A stretch of DNA of 60,905 bases, filler included. It is 6 parts of 6 records of this genome, joined end to end, with 100 filler letters (N's around TTAATTAATTAA, not from the genome) between each part and the next. Parts side by side here need not be neighbours in the genome. Positions count along the whole stretch, not along the records: positions 51,911 to 60,905 come from SRR31156797_17956; 5 more parts are not named here. One strand, given 5' to 3'. This document shows, piece after piece, positions 51,236 through 60,905 of this stretch (position 1 is its first letter; each line of letters starts with the position of its first letter). Made by a program: the position numbers and the translations under genes. Below the pieces are notes generated by a model that was not told the origin of the DNA, did no database searches, and saw nothing but the letters and a program-made list of their open reading frames with translations.

Positions 51236-51810
51236 ATGAATTCAAGAGATAACTACTTTATAAAGCTAATAAAATATATAAAAAACGTCTACCATATCGA
51301 TAAAGAAATAATACAAATTACAGACAAAAGAAAGAATCCCACTTATAAAACTTCACAGATTATATCACTGGTTTTGACCGGTTTCCTATTAAGAACACAA
51401 AGCTTCAATCAATTAAATAATATTATCAAGACTAACGATTTTGATTATGTTTATTCAAGTGAAAAAGGAATTCCCAAAATAGATGCTATAAGGAATTCAC
51501 TACAGTCAGTAAGCCTAAATGCTTTGCAACAGGTCATTGAAAAGACAGTAAACAGAGCAGTAAGAATCAACGTTTTAGATAAAGGCACTATTGATTATTC
51601 TATTGTAGCTGCTATCGATGGAACAAACATGTTTAATAATAAAAGCCCACATTGTGATGATTGTATATTGAAAAGAAACAAAGGCAAGATATATTATTCA
51701 CATAGTAGTGTAGTTATGTCATTGATAGGCGATGGACCAAACCTAGTATTAGATTTTGAAATGAACAAACATAAAAACACACCAAATGATACTGGAGAGG
51801 GAGAACTGGC
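51236..51810 (+). mobile_element. DDE transposase (IS4-like/ISNCY-type), N-terminal part
   Basis: DKR...Y, IP.ID.IR, first catalytic VAAIDGT, HCDDC, YYSH and GEGEL. Truncated at the contig end. Confidence 0.78.
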
Positions 51811-51910: not shown

Positions 51911-52069
51911 TCCAACATTGGAGAGTCATAAGTTTGTTACTCCTACAACAAATTTACCATTAGTGAATTAATTCTGGAGTTAAGATACATTTCATAAAAC
52001 TAACCGAATACCGGGAATTGCATTAAGAATTGCTCGAGGTGTAATTCCCAAAATCTAAAAAATACTATT

Positions 52070-53110
52070 ATGAAAAAATTATATGCTTTACTTTTTGCAG
52101 TTGCTTTTTGTCTTCCTGCATTAGTTAGTGCACAAGGATGTGATGAGCCTTCGGGTGAGGGAGTTAACGTTTTTGGTTTTATTCAACCTAAATATGAGTT
52201 CAACGAAGTTGCTGGCGATGACAATACCAGTACTTTCGATTTTAACAGAGCTAGAATTGGTGTAATGGGGAAGATTCCTTATGATATCAGTTACTATGTG
52301 GTATTAGAAGCAAGTCCTGACAATACAAGACATGATGGTGATGCCTATTTACTGGATGCATTTGTAACCTATTCTCGCTACGATTTTGCAAAAATTTCAA
52401 TGGGTTCTTTCAAATCACCAATCTCTTTGGAATTGAATACTCCTTGTCACAAATTACATACAATTAACCGTTCAAAAGTTGTAAACCAGTTGGCATCTCC
52501 AGATAGAGATCGTGGTTTTATGGTTTTAGGTGGTTCGGATACTACTTTATTACAATACAGTTTTGCTGTTACTAATGGAACAGGTCTATTTGATAAAGAT
52601 GACAATAAGAAGAAGGATTACGCAGCTCGCATTGTATTGAATCCACATAAGAATGTAAAAATTGGTGCTAGTTACAAGTATGGAGAGTCAGCTTCAGCTA
52701 CAGAAGGTATGCCAGATGATGAAAGAACACGTTGGGGTGCTGACGTTCAGTACAAAAAAGGAGCTTTCATGTTACAAGGAGAATATCTTTATGGTGAAGA
52801 TGTTGGTACTTATACAACCGGTGGTGGTTGTGGTGAAGAACTTGCAACTCATGAAGGTAGTGTGAAACGTGACGGTGGTTTCTTAATGGCAATGTATAAG
52901 TTTAATAACAACCTTCAACCTGTATTAAAATGCGAGTTTTTCGATTCAGATAAGGATATGGGTAACAATACAGAATTCTGTACTACTTATGGTTTGAATT
53001 ATTTCTTAAACGATTGGACAAAAATTCAAGCGAATTACGTTTACCGTGCTGAAAGAGATAATGAAGTTAACAATGATATTTTCATGTTGCAGGTAACTGT
53101 TAAGTTTTAA
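52070..53110 (+). CDS. Outer-membrane porin, OprO/OprP (anion-selective) family-like, Cys-rich
   Basis: Signal peptide, F.FNRARIG, LLDAFV.Y, GSFK.PISLE, RDRG, alternating beta-strands and terminal Phe. Confidence 0.85.
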   Translation: MKKLYALLFAVAFCLPALVSAQGCDEPSGEGVNVFGFIQPKYEFNEVAGDDNTSTFDFNRARIGVMGKIPYDISYYVVLEASPDNTRHDGDAYLLDAFVTYSRYDFAKISMGSFKSPISLELNTPCHKLHTINRSKVVNQLASPDRDRGFMVLGGSDTTLLQYSFAVTNGTGLFDKDDNKKKDYAARIVLNPHKNVKIGASYKYGESASATEGMPDDERTRWGADVQYKKGAFMLQGEYLYGEDVGTYTTGGGCGEELATHEGSVKRDGGFLMAMYKFNNNLQPVLKCEFFDSDKDMGNNTEFCTTYGLNYFLNDWTKIQANYVYRAERDNEVNNDIFMLQVTVKF

Positions 53111-53120
53111 CAATTAATTA

Positions 53121-53146
53121 AAGGAAGTCGGAATGGCTTCCTTTTT
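53121..53146 (+). terminator. Terminator-like hairpin between porin and rhodanese genes
   Basis: AAGGAAGTC...GGCTTCCTT followed by a T-run. Confidence 0.55.
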
Positions 53147-53176
53147 CTACTGTTTACTATTTAAAAATATACAATT

Positions 53177-54022
53177 ATGAAAAAAATGATATTACTTGCA
53201 TTTGTATGCTTTCTAGGTTTACAAATGACTTTCGCTCAAGACGTGATTTCTGTAAAAGAATTCTTAAAGATTAAAAAAGATGCTAATGTTGTATTGGTAA
53301 GCACACGTAAGGCTTCTGATTATGGTAAAGTTCATATTGATGGTGCTATTCATGTAAACCATAAGGATCTTTACAAGGCATCTCCAAAAAGTACCTTAAA
53401 ATCGACAGCCGAAATTGCAAAAATGCTAGGTGAAAAAGGGATTAGCAATACCAATAAAATTGTTCTTTACGATAATGGATCAGGTAAATATTCAGGTCGT
53501 GTATATTGGATCTTAAAATATATGGGTGCAAAGGATGTGAAGATTTTGGATGGACACATGAAAGCATGGAGAATGGCTCGAAAGCCAGTTACCAAAAATC
53601 CTGTTAAAAGAAAAGCTGCAACTTTTGCTGTGAATGTAAACAAAGGTGCTATTGCTAACATTGCACAAGTTAAGAAAGCAAGTAATAATGCAGCTTCTGT
53701 TATTGTTGATGTTCGTTCAGCTGATGAGTACAAAGGAATTAAAGAGTCGAAATTACCTAAGGGACATATTCCTTCGGCTATTAATCTTGAATTTAAAAAG
53801 GTACTTACAAATAGAAGTTTACTAAAATCGAAGGAAGACTTACAGACATTATTTACAGCTGCAGGGATTACAAAAGATAAAGAAGTAATTCTATACTGCG
53901 AATCTAGTGTTCGAGCTGGTATCGTTTATTTAGCTCTAAAATCAGCTTTAGGATATCCAAATGTGAAAGTATACGACGGAGCATTATTTGAGTGGACTGC
54001 TAGCGAAGTAGTTCAAAAGTAA
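53177..54022 (+). CDS. Secreted tandem-domain sulfurtransferase (rhodanese)
   Basis: Signal peptide, HIDGA, inactive N-domain (YD), GHIPSA, catalytic YCESSVRAG and VYDGALFEW. Confidence 0.92.
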   Translation: MKKMILLAFVCFLGLQMTFAQDVISVKEFLKIKKDANVVLVSTRKASDYGKVHIDGAIHVNHKDLYKASPKSTLKSTAEIAKMLGEKGISNTNKIVLYDNGSGKYSGRVYWILKYMGAKDVKILDGHMKAWRMARKPVTKNPVKRKAATFAVNVNKGAIANIAQVKKASNNAASVIVDVRSADEYKGIKESKLPKGHIPSAINLEFKKVLTNRSLLKSKEDLQTLFTAAGITKDKEVILYCESSVRAGIVYLALKSALGYPNVKVYDGALFEWTASEVVQK

Positions 54023-54221
54023 ATTCTTTTTTTCATAAATCTGAGTTCACATCCCTCTTTTACTGAGGGATATGAATTCAACTAACACTACTACTACAAT
54101 TACTCTCACCAGGTAATTATTGATTCGAGAGAATCATGTGTGAAATAGAGAAAACACAAAGAAAACCAACAAACTAATGTTTGTATACTAAGCATCAGTT
54201 CAATTTTAAAACATCAATCTG

Positions 54222-56453
54222 ATGAAGAAGTCAAGAAGAGAATTTATTAAGTTATCCGCTATTGGTGCCGGAGGTTTGGTGCTAGCCAATCCTTTATTAA
54301 ATGCCATGATTGGGCAGGTTAATGCGGCAGAAATGGATGCTTCAAAAATAAAGCGCTTCCCAACTTACTGCGAAGTTTGTTTCTGGAAGTGTGCCGGTTG
54401 GGTTTACACTGACGATAAAGGTGAAATCTGGAAGATTGAAGGTAACGAGGATGATCCGCATAGTAATGGTAGATTTTGCCCAAGAGGAACAGGTGGAATT
54501 GGCATGTACAATGATCCGGATCGTTTGAAAACACCTTTAATGCGTGTTGAAGAGAATGGCAAGCAAACTTTTAAAGAAGTTAGCTGGGATAAGGCATTTC
54601 GCGTTATAGCGGAAAAAATGAATAAGATAAAAGAAGAAAGTGGAGCAGAAAGTCTTGCCTTGTTTAAGCATGGTTCGGGTGGAGCTCATTTCGGAAAACT
54701 CTTTAAAGCCTTCGGATCCAGAAATATTACCGCTCCTTCTTATGCTCAATGTAGAGGACCTCGTGAAGTAGGTTTCAAAACTACATTCGGTTCGAATATT
54801 AATTCGCCGGAACCTGTTGATTTGGAAAATACCAAGTGCTTGGTTCTGATAGGAAATCATATCGGAGAGAACATGCACAATTCTCACGTGCAGGAAATGT
54901 CAAAAGCGATTGATAGAGGAGCAACAATTATTACTGTTGATCCAAGATTATCGACTGCTGCAAGTAAATCGAAATATTGGTTGCCTATTAAACCAGCTAC
55001 TGATATTGCCTTGCTTTTGGCTTGGATGAATGTTATTGTTACTGAAGAATTATACGATAAAGCATATATAGAGCAATACGCTTACGGATTAGAAGATTTG
55101 CAAGCTCATGTTGCTGATAAAACGCCTGAATGGGCAGAAGAAATTACAACAATTAGTGCTGACGTAATTCGTCAGACAGCTAGAGAAATGGCATTCCATG
55201 CGCCTGCTACATTAATTCATCCGGGACGACATGTTACCTGGTATGGTGATGATACGCAGCGATTAAGAGCTATGGCAATGCTGAATGCATTATTGGGATC
55301 GTGGGGACGCGAAGGTGGTTTCTATTTCCCGGAAAAAGCAAAAATTCCATCTTATCCACACCCTGGATATCCATCGGCAAGTTGGACATGGAAAGATCAT
55401 TTGGATGGCAAATATGCGTTGGCAGGATCATCAATTGCGAATGTTTTTGTTGACATGTCTCATCCTGATAATGAATCGGATTATAAGATAAAAGGATGGT
55501 TTGTTGTTGGAACCAATTTAATATCTACGATTCCAGATACTCCAAGAACTTTGGAAGCCATTCAAAATCTCGATTTATTGGTTGTTGTTGATACCATGCC
55601 GATGGAAATTACAGGCTATGCAGATATCATTCTACCGGAATGTACTTATCTGGAACGTTATGATGATATGCGTAGCTCTCCAAATAGAACGCCAAATGTT
55701 GCAGTAAGAATTCCTGCGGTGAAACCTAAATATCTTTCAAAACCTGCAGATTGGATTGTAAGAAAATTGTCTAAGAAATTGAAAATCTCAAGTCATTTTA
55801 AATATGAAAGCTACGGCGAGATTATTGATTGGCAACTGAAGCAAATGGGATCTTCTTTGGCTGAAATGAAAGAAAAAGGTGTTTTAAAATTGGATAGAAA
55901 AACACCAATGTTTATGGCTGAGGATGATTATCACGAATTTGGAACATCAACAGGAATGATTGAATTGTACTCCTTAGATCTTGAAATGGAAGGATTCGAT
56001 CCAATACCAAATTATACGCCGCATCCTGAGCCACCAAAAGGTTTTTACAGATTGAATTATGGTCGTGCACCAATGCATACATTTGGTAGAACGGTTAATA
56101 ATCCAAATCTAAATGAATTGATGAGTGAGAATAAACTTTGGGTGAATCCAAAAGTCGCTGCTGAAAATAATTTGGTGAACGATCAGGAAGTTTGGTTAAA
56201 GAACCAGGATGGAGTCATTTCTGATTTCCCGATAAAAGTTCGTGTAACAGAGAGAATAGGGAAAGATAATGTTTACATGATTCATGGATTTGGACGTGGA
56301 AATAAAAAATTAAAAAGATCTTTTGGAAAAGGAATTAGCGACTCTCAATTGATAACGAACGTTATGGTTGATCCTGTAATGGGAGGAACCGGAATGAGAG
56401 GAAACTTTGTAAGCTTTATAACAAATAAACCTGAAAGAGAGGTGATATCATGA
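54222..56453 (+). CDS. psrA: Polysulfide/thiosulfate reductase molybdopterin subunit (PsrA/PhsA)
   Basis: Tat motif SRREFIK, [4Fe-4S] CEVCFWKC...CPRG, Mo-Cys region APSYAQCRGPR and HPGRH. Confidence 0.85.
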   Translation: MKKSRREFIKLSAIGAGGLVLANPLLNAMIGQVNAAEMDASKIKRFPTYCEVCFWKCAGWVYTDDKGEIWKIEGNEDDPHSNGRFCPRGTGGIGMYNDPDRLKTPLMRVEENGKQTFKEVSWDKAFRVIAEKMNKIKEESGAESLALFKHGSGGAHFGKLFKAFGSRNITAPSYAQCRGPREVGFKTTFGSNINSPEPVDLENTKCLVLIGNHIGENMHNSHVQEMSKAIDRGATIITVDPRLSTAASKSKYWLPIKPATDIALLLAWMNVIVTEELYDKAYIEQYAYGLEDLQAHVADKTPEWAEEITTISADVIRQTAREMAFHAPATLIHPGRHVTWYGDDTQRLRAMAMLNALLGSWGREGGFYFPEKAKIPSYPHPGYPSASWTWKDHLDGKYALAGSSIANVFVDMSHPDNESDYKIKGWFVVGTNLISTIPDTPRTLEAIQNLDLLVVVDTMPMEITGYADIILPECTYLERYDDMRSSPNRTPNVAVRIPAVKPKYLSKPADWIVRKLSKKLKISSHFKYESYGEIIDWQLKQMGSSLAEMKEKGVLKLDRKTPMFMAEDDYHEFGTSTGMIELYSLDLEMEGFDPIPNYTPHPEPPKGFYRLNYGRAPMHTFGRTVNNPNLNELMSENKLWVNPKVAAENNLVNDQEVWLKNQDGVISDFPIKVRVTERIGKDNVYMIHGFGRGNKKLKRSFGKGISDSQLITNVMVDPVMGGTGMRGNFVSFITNKPEREVIS

Positions 56454-56983
56454 GATATGCAATGGTAATTGACACAAAAAAATGTGTTGGATGTAGTGAC
56501 TGTGTAGTTGCTTGTCAGAACGAAAATCGTGTGCCTATTGGATATTGCCGTGATTGGGTAGTTGAAAATGCCAAAGGGAAATTTCCGAATGTAAATATTG
56601 AATTGAGATCGGAGAGATGTAACCATTGTGAAAATTCACCTTGTGTAAGATGTTGCCCTACAGGGGCAAGTCATTACGAGGCGGGAGGAATTGTTAAAGT
56701 GACTCGCAATGAATGTATTGGATGCGGCGCTTGTGTTCAATCCTGTCCATACGATGCTCGTTACTCTCATCCTGATGGTTACGTTGATAAATGCACTTTC
56801 TGTATCCATAGAGTGAAGGAAGGTAAATCACCTTCTTGTGTATCGGTTTGTCCAACAGAATGCATGTATTTTGGAGATATCGATGACAAGGAAAGTAAGG
56901 TTTATCAGTTATTACAAAATAGAGATTGGAAAATATTGGCTCCCGAGGTGGGAACGAAGCCACATGTTTACTATCTGATATAA
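56450..56983 (+). CDS. psrB: 4Fe-4S electron transfer subunit (PsrB/NrfC)
   Basis: Four Cys clusters: CVGCSDC..AC, CNHC..PC..CCP, CIGCGAC..SCP and KCTFC...C..VCP. ATGA overlap with psrA. Confidence 0.9.
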   Translation: MRYAMVIDTKKCVGCSDCVVACQNENRVPIGYCRDWVVENAKGKFPNVNIELRSERCNHCENSPCVRCCPTGASHYEAGGIVKVTRNECIGCGACVQSCPYDARYSHPDGYVDKCTFCIHRVKEGKSPSCVSVCPTECMYFGDIDDKESKVYQLLQNRDWKILAPEVGTKPHVYYLI

Positions 56984-57140
56984 GATATTTAAGAAAATGA
57001 TTGTTCGCTGTATTCAAGTTGGTTGTTGTATTCAGTTGGCGATCAGGTTTAACAAGTTCAAGTTTTATATCGGGTTCCGTTTGTCAAGATTCTTTGCGCT
57101 GGGGTAATTTTGACAGACGGAATCCAAAAACAATCAAATT

Positions 57141-58082
57141 ATGAACGAAGAAATTATTGTAAGTGGAAGAATGAATTCCCATATTGATCCCGTTTTGGCA
57201 ATTTGGGGGTGGGAAATTCCATTGTATTTATTTTTAGGAGGATTGGCAGCAGGAATTATGTTTTTTGCAGCTTTATATACCATACTTGGTAGAGAGAAAG
57301 AGCTTCCTACAGCAGTTAGAAAAGCAACTTTTATTGTGCCGGCAATTTTAGTAATAGGATTATTTGCCTTATTCCTTGATTTGAAACACAAATTGTATTT
57401 CTGGCAATTGTATACAACTATTCGTATTGAATCTCCAATGTCATGGGGAGCCTGGATATTAATGTTAATTACACCACTTTCGATTGTTTGGTGTGTTTCT
57501 TATTGGCGTGATTTAGTGCCAAATTGGAAATTTAAGGTGGAATGGCTGGAGTTTATCGAAAAGCAGGTTAATGCTTATCGAAAGCCACTTGCATGGGTAA
57601 TGATCGTTTCCTCAGTAATTCTTGGAATTTACACAGGAATACTATTATCTGCTTTTAATGCGCGTCCGCTTTGGAATACTTCAATATTAGGACCATTGTT
57701 CCTGGTTTCAGGTTTATCAACAGGAGCTGCAGTAATCATGTGGATGTCAAAAGATCATTTGGAAAGAACATTATTCAGTAAGATTGATCTATTGTTGATT
57801 GGAATTGAAATATTCTTTATTATACACCTATTTATGGGCTTCATGGCAAGTAATGCCGCACAAATTGAAGCAGCTCAATTGTTTTTAGGTGGAGCTTATA
57901 CTCTTCCTTTTTGGGGTGGAGTTGTTGTTTTAGGTTTACTGATTCCGGCTATTCTCGAAATATTAGAATTGAGAGGTAGGAAAATACCTGTTGCTTTGCC
58001 AGCAATTTTAATTCTTTTTGGAGGGATAGTTTTCCGTTTTATAATGGTTGATGCCGGTCAGATAAGTAAGTATTTATATTAA
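57141..58082 (+). CDS. psrC: NrfD/PsrC membrane quinol-oxidising subunit
   Basis: WGWEIPLYLFLGGLAAG, SPMSWGAW, YTGILL...RPLWN and PLFLVSGLSTG. Confidence 0.9.
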   Translation: MNEEIIVSGRMNSHIDPVLAIWGWEIPLYLFLGGLAAGIMFFAALYTILGREKELPTAVRKATFIVPAILVIGLFALFLDLKHKLYFWQLYTTIRIESPMSWGAWILMLITPLSIVWCVSYWRDLVPNWKFKVEWLEFIEKQVNAYRKPLAWVMIVSSVILGIYTGILLSAFNARPLWNTSILGPLFLVSGLSTGAAVIMWMSKDHLERTLFSKIDLLLIGIEIFFIIHLFMGFMASNAAQIEAAQLFLGGAYTLPFWGGVVVLGLLIPAILEILELRGRKIPVALPAILILFGGIVFRFIMVDAGQISKYLY

Positions 58083-58135
58083 TGGAAATTGGTTTTTATT
58101 AATAGTAACCTAAACCAATTATTCGCGTAAGTTGT

Positions 58136-58167
58136 AAAGGATACATTAGGTTGTATCCTTTTTTTAT
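58136..58167 (+). terminator. Rho-independent terminator after psrC
   Basis: AAAGGATACA...TGTATCCTTT followed by a T-run. Confidence 0.75.
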
Positions 58168-58195
58168 TGCAAGTTTAATACAATTGTATTTTATT

Positions 58196-58567
58196 ATGGG
58201 TGAAGTCACGTACGATATCATTACTAAAAATGACTTGAAAGTTGTTATTCGAAAATTCAATGGTATTGTTGATGTGGAAGATGTATTGGATTCTTTTAAG
58301 TATATCCAAAAAGAAATGCTTGATGAAAAAGTGCTTGGAGTAGTAACTAATTTTGATGAGAGTGTAATGAATATCAACTTATCCCAACTTCAAGAAGTAA
58401 TTAAATACCTGAAAACGACTCCTGAATTTCATCAAGTTAAACTTGCAGTAGTTGTTAATTCTCCAGATAAAATTGTCATTCCTATGATGGCACAAGCAAA
58501 AACTGAAGAAGCAATAATAAAACCTTTTTCAAGCGAGAATGCAGCTGTCAATTGGATATTTGAGTAG
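58196..58567 (+). CDS. Hypothetical protein, STAS/SEC14 (SpoIIAA-like) fold candidate
   Basis: G.VDVED, KLAVVV.SP and PFSSENAAVNWI pattern. Confidence 0.55.
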   Translation: MGEVTYDIITKNDLKVVIRKFNGIVDVEDVLDSFKYIQKEMLDEKVLGVVTNFDESVMNINLSQLQEVIKYLKTTPEFHQVKLAVVVNSPDKIVIPMMAQAKTEEAIIKPFSSENAAVNWIFE

Positions 58568-58686
58568 TAAATATTATCTAATTGTCAGAACCCTAAATCA
58601 TTATTGATTCAAAATTTTTTGGAGGAAACTAGATTTCTGTTGTAACTTGGGTAAAAACGGATAGTTAAACCTAAGTTATTGTTGTT

Positions 58687-59274
58687 ATGGCTCCTAATAA
58701 AAAATTACCTGATGATGTGGATAAGAGGAGGGAAATTCTAAGTACGGCTTTAGAGATTTTTGTGAAGGAAGGATATTTTTCAACTACTGGAGCAAGTATA
58801 GCCAAAGCCATTGTTATTTCTGAGAAAGAACTTTTTTCTTATTTCGAGACCAAAGAAGATTTGTTACATACCATTGTTGAAGAGGCAGTTCATTTGCTAT
58901 TTGATGGTATAGATCCTAATGAAGATGGCGAACTGCAGGAAGTAGAATTGCTGTTTTTTATCAATGATTATTTTGATTCTGTAGAGAAGAATCTCAGATT
59001 CTTTAAGTTGTTTTATGCGCTTAGACTTCAGCCAGGAGTGGTTCCTTTATACAAACAAGAATTGGATGAAATTGTAAGCATGAAATTCGATGTGTTGAAT
59101 GAGTACTTTAGTCAGAGTGGTGCAGCCGATCCCGAAATGGAAACAGAGTTTTTAACTTCGATGTTGGAAGGTATTGCGATGAATTTTGTTCTGGAACCCG
59201 AAGGTTATCCTATTGATGCCATGCAACAAAAAGTATTGAATATGTATGTAACCAAAGCAGAATATGAAGAGTGA
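58687..59274 (+). CDS. TetR/AcrR family regulator
   Basis: REILSTALEIF..EGY.STT..IAK...FSYFETKEDL. Confidence 0.85.
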   Translation: MAPNKKLPDDVDKRREILSTALEIFVKEGYFSTTGASIAKAIVISEKELFSYFETKEDLLHTIVEEAVHLLFDGIDPNEDGELQEVELLFFINDYFDSVEKNLRFFKLFYALRLQPGVVPLYKQELDEIVSMKFDVLNEYFSQSGAADPEMETEFLTSMLEGIAMNFVLEPEGYPIDAMQQKVLNMYVTKAEYEE

Positions 59275-59304
59275 AATTTATTGTGAATGAGTAATTAAGA
59301 ATAC

Positions 59305-59337
59305 AAAAAATCCGATTCGTAATACGAATCGGATTTT
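59305..59337. terminator. Bidirectional terminator between tetR and the peptidase gene
   Basis: AAAATCCGATTCGTA-A-TACGAATCGGATTTT perfect hairpin with A/T tails. Confidence 0.8.
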
Positions 59338-59376
59338 ATATTTTGAGCAAATTAGCTTATTGCTAATCGCTATTTT

Positions 59377-60905
59377 TTATTTTAAACCACGTTTGATCAA
59401 TAAAGGATCAATGCTAGGCTCAGCACCTCTAAATTGCTTGTACAATTTCATAGGATCTTCAGTACCACCTTTTGCCAATACGTTATCGCGGAAAGCTTTA
59501 GCAGTTGCTTTATCGAATAAAGAAGTTTCTTTAAATGCCATAAATGCATCTGAATCTAAAACACCTGCCCAAATGTAAGCATAGTAACCAGCAGAATATC
59601 CACCAGCGAAAATGTGGTTGAAGTAAGTAGAACGGTATCTTGAGTAGATCTCGTCAATTAATCCAAGCTCACCTAAATAATTCTTTTCGAAAGTCATTAC
59701 ATCTTCAGTTAATTCTTCAGACATTGTATGATATTTCATATCTAATAAAGAAGCAGCAAGATATTCAACAGTAGCAAATCCCTGGTTGAATTTACCAGCA
59801 TTTTGAATTTTCTTCACCAATTCAGCAGGAATTACTTCACCAGTTTTGTAATGCTTCGCATAGATTGCTAACATTTCTGGTTCGAAGCACCAGTTTTCCA
59901 TAACCTGAGATGGAAGCTCAACAAAATCACGAGAAACAGAAGTTCCCGATAAGTAGTTGTACTCACACTTAGAAAGGAATCCGTGAAGAGCGTGACCGAA
60001 CTCGTGGAATAAAGTTTCAACTTCATCTGGAGTTAACAATGCAGGAGTATCTCCAACAGGTTTAGTAAAGTTACAGATGTTCAAGATAACTGGAGTAACA
60101 GGCTTAGCAGTTCCGAAACCTGATTGCTTACGGAATGAGCTCATCCAAGCACCACCACGCTTAGAAGCACGTGGGTGATAATCCAAATAGAAAATACCAA
60201 TGTGAGATCCATCAGCTTCTTGCAATTCGAAAACCTGGTTTGCAGGATTGAATTTAGCGATATCGTTACGTTCAACGAATTTGATACCATATAATTTAGT
60301 AGCTAAAGCAAAAGCACCATCACGAACATTGTTTATTTCGAAATATGGCTTTAACTCTTCTTCGTCCAAGTCGTATTTCGCTTTCTTTACTTTGTCAGCA
60401 TAGTACCACCAGTCCCAAGAAGCAAGCTTGAATTTGCCACCTTCTTTAGCAATCATTTTTTGCATTTCCTTCACTTCTTTCTTAGCGTTAGGAAGAGCAG
60501 CTTTCCAAAGTTTATTTAATAATTCAAATGCTTTTTCAGGAGTTTTAGCCATGTTCTTTTCAAGAACGTATTCTGCATGGTTGTTGTAACCAAACAATTT
60601 AGCTCGCTGAATACGAAGATTTACAATCTTCTTAGCATTCTCTTTGTTATCGAATTCGTTGTTGTTGTTACCACGGTTTACGTAACCCATGTACAATTGC
60701 TTACGCAAGTCACGGTTATCAGCATACTGTAGGAAAGGCAACATACTTGGCTTTTGAGTTGTGAATAACCACTTGCCTTCTTTATCTGCAGCTTTTGCAG
60801 TTTCAGCAGCAGCAGCAATTACACCTTCTGGTAAACCTGCAAGATCTTTTTCGTTATCAATAACCAATTCGAAGTTGTTTGTTTCTTTCAAAACATTCTC
60901 GCCAA
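59377..60905 (-). CDS. M3 family metallopeptidase (peptidyl-dipeptidase Dcp), 5'-truncated
   Basis: KRGGAWM, FHEFGHALH, RDFVELPSQ and HIFAGGYSAGYYAY.W. Confidence 0.95.
   Translation of the reverse strand, partial: GENVLKETNNFELVIDNEKDLAGLPEGVIAAAAETAKAADKEGKWLFTTQKPSMLPFLQYADNRDLRKQLYMGYVNRGNNNNEFDNKENAKKIVNLRIQRAKLFGYNNHAEYVLEKNMAKTPEKAFELLNKLWKAALPNAKKEVKEMQKMIAKEGGKFKLASWDWWYYADKVKKAKYDLDEEELKPYFEINNVRDGAFALATKLYGIKFVERNDIAKFNPANQVFELQEADGSHIGIFYLDYHPRASKRGGAWMSSFRKQSGFGTAKPVTPVILNICNFTKPVGDTPALLTPDEVETLFHEFGHALHGFLSKCEYNYLSGTSVSRDFVELPSQVMENWCFEPEMLAIYAKHYKTGEVIPAELVKKIQNAGKFNQGFATVEYLAASLLDMKYHTMSEELTEDVMTFEKNYLGELGLIDEIYSRYRSTYFNHIFAGGYSAGYYAYIWAGVLDSDAFMAFKETSLFDKATAKAFRDNVLAKGGTEDPMKLYKQFRGAEPSIDPLLIKRGLK

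Follow-up and report, generated by a model that had tools for sequence, protein, structure and literature searches.

Introduction

The locus treated here is best compared with the polysulfide reductase PsrABC of Thermus thermophilus (structures 2vpw, 2vpx, 2vpy and 2vpz), with the PsrABC enzyme of Wolinella succinogenes and its sulfur carrier Sud, and with the ext cluster of Geobacter sulfurreducens, in which a rhodanese and a porin accompany a different polysulfide reductase. It lies in a stretch of DNA of 60,905 nucleotides (the window), whose last contig carries five genes for an OprO/P-like porin, a secreted tandem rhodanese and the three subunits of a PsrABC-type molybdoenzyme. Judging from the sequence, we regard these genes, with a probability of about 0.62, as part of a respiratory sulfane-sulfur reductase system in which the porin would provide entry and the rhodanese would act as carrier. 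The favoured substrate is most likely polysulfide formed from elemental sulfur (S0), because of the Geobacter parallel, with thiosulfate as a possible one.

With the Thermus enzyme the locus shares a full-length match of the A subunit, a conserved cysteine ligand of the molybdenum (Mo), a B subunit with four clusters and a C subunit of the NrfD type, whereas the identity is moderate and the activity of the window's enzyme is a predicted one. We know of no dedicated porin or rhodanese genes beside psrABC in Thermus. The likeness to Wolinella lies in a rhodanese-fold protein of the periplasm as a possible carrier of sulfane sulfur to Psr, but Sud is reportedly a small single-domain dimer, in contrast to the tandem rhodanese of the window with its 281 amino acids (aa), and the relatives of the window add two lipoprotein rhodaneses in one cluster with the porin.

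The Geobacter cluster extHIJKLMNOPQS shows a rhodanese-then-porin order beside a polysulfide reductase and encodes the lipoprotein rhodanese ExtH, the porin ExtI, ExtJ, ExtKL (GSU2937-2936), the cytochromes ExtM and ExtN, the Rieske protein ExtO, the cytochrome b ExtP, ExtQ and ExtS (PMC5877670). GSU2937-2936 (MccSep) has been reported to be a polysulfide reductase that is required for and induced by S0 respiration (PMC13510729). ExtM-, ExtP-, ExtQ- and ExtO-like genes are also present in clusters of the window's relatives. In contrast, the terminal enzyme is a multihaem selenoprotein in Geobacter and a molybdenum PsrABC here, and the window's own clade, which kept the rhodaneses and the porin, lacks the Ext-like cytochromes. 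In Dissulfuribacter thermophilus an OprO/P-family porin, suggested by the authors to import sulfur compounds, is syntenic with a sulfur-metabolic Mo enzyme that has a Cys ligand; that organism, however, belongs to another phylum, its enzyme falls into a Ttr-like branch, and the accessible account has no rhodanese pair (PMC13490349). Molybdoenzymes of sulfur metabolism with OprO/P-like porins or rhodaneses nearby have been noted in other phyla (PMC13490349, PMC6896113), and PsrABC is not new in the Marinifilaceae either, as 'thiosulfate reductase' is listed for such genomes (PMC9765461). No description of the porin-rhodanese-psrABC cluster, of the cysteine triad of its porin or of an Ext-Psr hybrid was found in our search of the literature, outside which lay the supplements of PMC13510729.

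Results and Discussion

The window is composed of six contigs joined by five linkers of the form N...TTAATTAATTAA...N, and the operon is located on the last one (51911-60905, 8995 bp, G+C 0.36), so that the DNA left of 51911 is not physically joined to the five genes. Calling of open reading frames (ORFs) on this contig returned all five on the + strand, at the coordinates given in the initial annotation, and the following features were assigned:

51911..51971, + strand: 3' end of the upstream multi-domain lipoprotein rhodanese gene, last 19 codons and stop (C-terminus match to a 626-aa protein of Marinifilum fragile)
52013..52049, + strand: stem-loop in the gap that separates the porin gene from the upstream rhodanese gene (-17.4 kcal/mol, z -4.6)
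52070..53110, + strand: outer-membrane porin, 346 aa, OprO/P fold, C24/C126/C254 (Pfam, NCBIfam, AlphaFold (AF2) model, alignments)
53177..54022, + strand: secreted tandem rhodanese, 281 aa, inactive N-domain, C-domain with Cys241 in a CESSVR loop (Pfam, NCBIfam, orthologue alignment)
54042..54080, + strand: strong stem-loop in the 199-bp gap between rhodanese gene and psrA, no T run behind it (-21.0 kcal/mol, z -6.2)
54222..56453, + strand: psrA, catalytic subunit with bis-molybdopterin guanine dinucleotide, exported by twin-arginine translocation (Tat), 743 aa (motifs, Pfam, NCBIfam, PDB, tree)
56450..56983, + strand: psrB, four-[4Fe-4S] ferredoxin subunit, 177 aa (Cys groups, Pfam, NCBIfam)
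57141..58082, + strand: psrC, NrfD-family membrane anchor, 313 aa (Pfam, NCBIfam)
58136..58169, + strand: terminator-like hairpin (58136-58161) and T run at the operon end (-12.1 kcal/mol, z -3.6)

PsrA is 93–94% identical to the proteins of M. flexuosum and M. fragile (93% for M. fragile) and for the porin the identity to a Marinifilum sp. N1E240 protein is 99%; by these identities the host is a Marinifilum species. At the psrA stop, the start of psrB shares 4 nt with the preceding gene. Translation of the first 61 bases of the contig gives ...PTLESHKFVTPTTNLPLVN*, which is the C-terminus of the M. fragile 626-aa protein with four rhodanese domains (L001:4888-6768). As the contig begins inside this upstream rhodanese gene, the operon is cut at 51911 and the five genes are its distal part and not the whole operon, so that the complete chain of uptake, carrier and reductase claimed by the initial annotation is not contained in the window.

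The assignment of the three psr genes rests on several lines of evidence. PsrA possesses the twin-arginine motif SRREFIK and the N-terminal cluster motif with Cys50, Cys53, Cys57 and Cys86, all invariant in 23 sequences, and is matched by the Pfam families Molybdopterin (150 bits), Molybdop_Fe4S4 (27.7 bits) and Molydop_binding (39.7 bits). When compared to all PDB sequences it matched Thermus PsrA (2vpw) over the full length with 637 bits (E 3.7e-190), the second best being acetylene hydratase with 160 bits, and ArrA reached 123 bits. In this alignment Cys177, His150 and Arg336 pair with Cys173, His145 and Arg332 of the Thermus protein, and none of the three varies among 23 relatives. By their Thermus counterparts we take Cys177 to be the Mo ligand and His150 and Arg336 to be active-site residues, roles that reportedly go back to the Thermus Psr structure of Jormakka et al. 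2008. Downstream, PsrB shows 16 Cys ligands in four groups (Fer4_11, 80.7 bits) and PsrC an NrfD match of 163.4 bits across residues 20–308 of 313. The Tat-exported Mo-Cys enzyme, the 4x[4Fe-4S] subunit and the NrfD anchor of the initial annotation are all confirmed by these data, and of the characterised enzymes it is Psr that PsrA resembles most.

Among the NCBIfam models PhsA ranked first for PsrA with 468 bits, followed at a wide distance by formate dehydrogenase (255 bits), the DmsA family (226 bits) and ArrA (154 bits), and the two M. fragile PsrA copies reached 391 and 485 bits on the PhsA model. By these scores from hidden Markov models and the PDB, on which the assignment is based, the enzyme is a member of the PsrA/PhsA/SrrA lineage of the dimethyl sulfoxide (DMSO) reductase family; the PsrA tree described below covers the Bacteroidota relatives.

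The porin belongs to the OprO/OprP family, as had been proposed, since it matched Pfam Porin_O_P (PF07396) with 55.4 bits against a gathering cut-off of 20.9, and its AF2 model, calculated from an alignment of 37 sequences with a mean predicted local distance difference test (pLDDT) of 81.7, had OprP (2o4v, TMq 0.73) and OprO (4rjw, TMq 0.71) as the top two PDB folds, in agreement with a 16-strand porin fold. Three cysteines are invariant in 37/37 sequences, namely Cys24, whose QGC motif directly follows the signal peptide, Cys126 within NTPCHKLHTINRS and Cys254, located in a GGGCG loop. This triad is also present in all six further module-linked copies and in none of seven generic Porin_O_P paralogs. 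A role of Cys24 as lipoprotein cysteine was considered and rejected, as the AQ/GC context suits signal peptidase I, leaving Gln at +1, over a lipobox; Gln in this position after cleavage by signal peptidase I is known as the 'Q-rule'.

The tandem rhodanese was recognised by PF00581 with 134 bits in two stretches and starts with a signal peptide. Its Cys241 is located in a YC-x-[ST]-x-x-[RK]-A loop and is invariant in 14/14 aligned orthologues, all of which carry signal peptides (the alignment leaves out the L018 copy). Thus the exported tandem rhodanese with a catalytic cysteine described earlier could be verified, and both the domain and the catalytic-type Cys in the loop agree with a rhodanese sulfurtransferase. 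Its best NCBIfam matches are sulfurtransferase models, with ExtH second. With 281 aa and two domains it is not of the Sud type, taken here as small and single-domain as that type is usually described. A complex prediction for residues 22–346 of the porin and 21–281 of the rhodanese scored 0.02 compared to a mark of 0.34, which speaks neither for nor against binding.

Two further rhodaneses, both lipoproteins, are encoded upstream in the relatives and lie outside the window save for the 19 codons of the large one. In the large protein the lipobox Cys precedes K/S-(D/E)2-3, and each repeat contains two invariant CxTGQT loops. The exact K-(D/E)2 follows the lipobox Cys in five of the ten copies read (L001 and nine of ten alignment rows, the tenth being without N-terminus), and K-(D/E)2 has been described as a surface-exposure signal in Bacteroidota (PMC5080379). 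The small protein ends with GGC-COOH in 4/4 cluster-linked copies. The ExtH model found no match among these upstream lipoprotein rhodaneses of the relatives.

To see how far this arrangement is conserved, one genome per species was scanned, which gave 80 loci with close PsrA relatives (57–93% identity). A porin orthologue (at least 200 bits) is located beside psrABC in 15 of them, from several Bacteroidota families: in four (Marinifilum, Ancylomarina, Draconibacterium and a metagenome-assembled genome (MAG) of the Ichthyobacteriaceae) the porin and the tandem rhodanese immediately precede psrABC, ten have the porin upstream with 2.3–6.7 kb of other genes between, and one has it downstream. 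In M. fragile (L001) a divergent Crp/FNR gene is followed by the genes for a 188-aa lipoprotein rhodanese, the 626-aa lipoprotein rhodanese, the porin, the tandem rhodanese, psrABC, a TetR regulator and an M3 peptidase, and the last two are found downstream of psrABC in the window as well. MobA and Crp/FNR regulator genes are frequently added in the clusters of relatives.

When 401 Bacteroidota genomes, sampled evenly and centred on M. fragile, were searched, PsrA-like genes (E <= 1e-150) were found in 55 genomes and a close porin orthologue (at least 238 bits) in three; PsrABC is common in Bacteroidota and the porin module is rare. Together with the thiosulfate-reductase genes already listed for Marinifilaceae (PMC9765461), the 55 genomes show that the description of the lineage as usually viewed as fermentative was overstated. 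All three porin copies lie among rhodanese genes; two share a stretch with psrABC, and the third is about 0.5 kb (the adjoining tandem rhodanese gene) from a contig end, psrABC being located on a different one. Seven Porin_O_P paralogs (58–89 bits, six genomes) have neither a rhodanese nor a psr gene within about 9 kb.

A FastTree phylogeny of 94 PsrA rows was then reconstructed, from which L065 (PsrA split in two) and L096 (partial) were left out. The window falls into a clade of five rows (support 99) with a porin in every row, and 14 of the 16 porin-linked rows are located in one 34-row clade (support 96). The porin label changes six times on this tree compared to a mean of 15.0 after shuffling, and 0/500 shuffles were as low. 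A second psrABC of M. fragile (L022), 63% identical, belongs to a separate 39-row clade without porin.

These data bear directly on the idea that a phosphate porin and a general sulfurtransferase are housekeeping genes that became neighbours of psrABC by chance. The porin family is indeed named 'phosphate-selective porin' in the sources and most related psrABC loci have no porin, but the linkage is kept across families, the porin label clusters on the PsrA tree, the porin orthogroup was never found away from rhodaneses in the 401-genome sample and its Cys triad is orthogroup-specific. We consider a chance neighbourhood to be highly improbable, and the link of porin and rhodanese to psr genes, on which the initial annotation had relied, holds in the related genomes.

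The genes downstream of psrABC were counted as well. From 60 loci with at least 6.5 kb of downstream sequence, 58 have a rhodanese near psrABC (the two lowest scores, 29 bits in L001 and L002, are other rhodaneses of the locus), 53 have YeeE halves and four a FadL-like channel. An alternative reading has thiosulfate as the physiological substrate, in which case the porin would admit thiosulfate, the rhodanese as a thiosulfate sulfurtransferase would take the sulfane sulfur and free sulfite, and PsrABC would reduce the protein-bound or released sulfane sulfur. Several observations are in line with it, as 'thiosulfate reductase' is the annotation in Marinifilaceae genomes (PMC9765461), PhsA of the Salmonella PhsABC system is the best NCBIfam model for PsrA, the tandem rhodanese is matched best by sulfurtransferase models, OprO/P-fold porins are anion channels, and the YeeE/YedE halves, present in 53/60 related loci with TauE in one, carry the name 'sulphur transport'. 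Yet PsrA stays with 468.2 bits under the cut-off of 694 bits of the PhsA equivalog (NF012032), the window's own clade (L001–L003) is without YeeE genes, and the Geobacter parallel favours polysulfide. Moreover, PsrC is an NrfD-type anchor, unlike PhsC of Salmonella, which is said to be of the cytochrome b type. Thiosulfate as the physiological substrate therefore appears unlikely to us.

Another connection leads to the ext genes. From the 15 porin-bearing loci 11 also contain cytochrome and Rieske genes that are ExtM/ExtP/ExtO-like, with a multihaem cytochrome in each of the 11. In several loci the multihaem cytochrome is fused to cytochrome b, beside a Rieske protein, and encoded on the opposite strand between rhodanese and psrA; on the ExtM model these cytochromes reach 222–240 bits and on ExtP 56 bits, with weak scores for ExtN, ExtO and ExtQ. 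An ExtM-like multihaem cytochrome gene was seen in 22 of the 80 psrABC loci (including L004, L007, L012, L020, L027 and L077), in several as a fusion with cytochrome b of about 900 aa behind a Rieske gene and divergent from psrABC, and such genes also occur in psrABC loci of the Flavobacteriaceae Maribacter, Tamlana and Winogradskyella. For the porin of the window ExtI (NF040900) is the only NCBIfam match. By their similarity the Bacteroidota clusters look like Ext-type modules for sulfur delivery and electron transfer with a Mo PsrABC in place of the Geobacter selenoprotein. The earlier proposal that an Ext-type module was joined to a Psr-type reductase gains support from the ExtI match and from the ExtM/ExtP/ExtO-like genes of relatives. 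It does not extend to an assignment of the two proteins of the window: ExtI matched the porin with 60.1 bits over residues 48–188 at a cut-off of 150 and ExtH (NF040901) the tandem rhodanese with 62.8 bits at a cut-off of 200, and as these scores are far under the cut-offs, both proteins are, by sequence, not members of the ExtI/ExtH equivalogs.

The NCBIfam Ext models bear the name 'selenite/tellurite reduction operon', and the system could accordingly be a reductase of chalcogen oxyanions, either like SrrABC with the rhodanese SrrE or in the role first given to ExtI and ExtH. SrrABC of Bacillus selenitireducens comes from the same DMSO-reductase lineage and likewise has a rhodanese gene in its operon, but this organism is Gram-positive, has no outer-membrane porin and uses selenite as substrate. 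The placement of SrrA in the PsrA/PhsA/SrrA lineage (PMC7331816), the ExtI match of the porin and the extI mutant, which reduced less selenite and tellurite (PMC5877670), are arguments for such a function. They are opposed by the low Ext scores, by the report of GSU2937-2936 as a polysulfide reductase induced by S0 (PMC13510729) and by the label of the runs that contain this DNA, which is marine sediment, where sulfur is generally far more abundant than selenium. We therefore rate a selenite or tellurite reductase as quite unlikely.

The ExtM-like cytochromes also raise the possibility of an oxidative direction, in which sulfide, polysulfide or thiosulfate would feed electrons into the quinone pool and the sulfur products would be handled by the rhodaneses and the porin. 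Maribacter, Winogradskyella and Tamlana, in which close psrABC relatives occur together with these cytochromes, are known as aerobes, and for green sulfur bacteria a role of Psr-like complexes in sulfur oxidation has reportedly been suggested. On the other hand, Crp/FNR-family regulators adjoin the cluster in relatives, the characterised members of the lineage are reductases and Marinifilum has been described as a facultative anaerobe (PMC13701630), which makes an oxidative function very unlikely.

With regard to expression, six public runs from three studies contain part of this stretch (shares 0.06–0.42). Five of the six (shares 0.17–0.42) are recorded as RNA libraries; they belong to two studies and all stem from marine sediment. 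Four RNA runs were aligned to the stretch, and contigs that are 92–100% alike bridge all five junctions:

upstream rhodanese/porin junction: X1 record 1, X2 record 9
porin/rhodanese junction: X3 record 17
rhodanese/psrA junction: X1 record 3, X2 record 11
psrA/psrB junction: X2 record 14, X3 record 22
psrB/psrC junction: X2 record 15

Parts of the operon without cover by RNA contigs in some runs were not counted as evidence. The co-transcription expected in the initial annotation agrees with these bridges, which give a weak hint of it. The terminator closing the operon was found as predicted, with the hairpin at 58136-58161 followed by the T run. For the stem-loop 52013-52049, 0/200 shuffles fold as well, and its arms GGGAATTG and AATTCCC are kept in M. 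fragile with a differing loop. The second one at 54042-54080 maintains its pairing with changed bases in M. fragile and is crossed by RNA-library contigs; it is possibly an element for processing, stability or a partial stop. A scan for FNR boxes (TTGAT-N4-ATCAA, up to 2 mismatches) resulted in 85 matches in the window compared to 63 expected, and the intergenic gaps of the operon have none except 58089-58102, 16 bases past the psrC stop, so that the scan says nothing about regulation of the operon. The search for sigma-70 promoters gave 21 sites where 31.8 were expected and is likewise uninformative; promoters of Bacteroidota differ from the sigma-70 pattern.

Some of these results have to be set against the reading as a respiratory sulfane-sulfur reductase system. 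Members of the PsrA/PhsA/SrrA lineage are not separable by substrate from their sequence (PMC7331816, PMC7887784), and accordingly the choice among polysulfide, thiosulfate and selenite is not settled by sequence for the enzyme of the window. Besides those of PhsA, ExtI and ExtH, the cut-off of the SseA equivalog is missed as well. Among the 51 related psrABC loci whose upstream sequence extends over 7 kb or more, 14 have a porin and 37 do not, and Psr thus does not require the porin. The Flavobacteriaceae genera among the relatives with psrABC and ExtM-like genes put the direction of the reaction in question. The RNA contigs may include carry-over of DNA and cannot prove a single transcript, which is why co-transcription is no more than hinted at. 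Finally, our literature search found no paper linking Marinifilum to polysulfide reductase, and for Marinifilum and S0 reduction the only paper naming Marinifilum among the matches listed assigns no sulfur reduction to it in its accessible part.

Taking both sides together, we still favour the respiratory sulfane-sulfur reductase, and the genes of the window would form the distal portion of a Marinifilum operon for anaerobic sulfur respiration. PsrABC would be anchored in the membrane and face the periplasm, electrons from the quinol pool would pass from PsrC via PsrB to PsrA, and PsrA would reduce sulfane sulfur to sulfide. The porin might let anionic sulfur species pass the outer membrane, and the tandem rhodanese could take up the sulfur as a persulfide at Cys241 and deliver it to PsrA, comparable to the role ascribed to Sud in Wolinella.

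A more far-reaching model would be that the full cluster forms a complete thiol-based relay from solid extracellular S0 to the molybdenum site. Here a surface-exposed lipoprotein rhodanese, with K-(D/E)2 after Cys+1 and two to four CxTGQT loops, would act first, and the cysteines of the porin (N-terminal QGC, loop-3-like NTPCHK and the GGGCG loop) would move sulfane sulfur by persulfide exchange instead of free diffusion. Periplasmic rhodaneses, one of them with a flexible acidic tail and GGC-COOH reminiscent of the SoxY carrier arm, would then pass it on to PsrA. We present this relay as a speculative proposal that we consider unlikely.

Some additional observations concern other psr loci. 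Behind psrABC, M. fragile locus L022 (L022:12760-15817) encodes a pair of YeeE/YedE 'sulphur transport' halves, one rhodanese and an outer-membrane channel of the FadL/TodX type. Channels of this type transport hydrophobic compounds, and the locus represents another pairing of Psr with a channel in the outer membrane. PsrA relatives with 59–62% identity occur in MAGs labelled Neomarinimicrobiota and Lentisphaeria (L019, L078), with two psrC-like genes in tandem in L019. A further match to a molybdopterin enzyme in M. fragile (L083, G001:C4:133158-134213) has two in-frame TGA codons, which would fit a selenocysteine enzyme as well as a broken gene.

Regarding the surroundings of the operon, a 138-aa ORF (58151-58567) without Pfam or NCBIfam match is located between psrC and the TetR gene and is spanned by one RNA-library contig. 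The gap between psrC and the TetR gene is 605 bp in the window and 228 bp in M. fragile, and because of this greater width the region of the ORF resembles an insertion. The TetR gene is intact in the window (58687-59274) and consists of two overlapping ORFs in M. fragile (L001:13091-13608), which suggests a frameshift there. On the neighbouring contig, the ORF 51236-51810 has a weak match to a DDE_Tnp_1-associated domain (22 bits, under the cut-off) and runs into the N linker. The G+C values of the six contigs (0.44, 0.56, 0.57, 0.28, 0.33 and 0.36) differ, which probably reflects an origin in at least two organisms or in a mixed bin.

Conclusion

The route of poorly soluble S0 or polysulfide through the outer membrane and on to a reductase in the periplasm is largely unsettled. 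The cluster described here places candidate parts for every step near the enzyme, namely a thiol-bearing porin, several exported rhodaneses and PsrABC, and it is present in the cultured marine Bacteroidota Marinifilum fragile, Ancylomarina and Draconibacterium. It would also show the rhodanese-porin module of the Geobacter ext cluster paired, in another phylum, with a terminal polysulfide reductase of a different kind, which suggests that the module serves sulfur delivery in general and not selenite reduction specifically. For the ecology of marine sediments, our analysis would support regarding the Bacteroidota that are abundant there as reducers of intermediates of the sulfur cycle.

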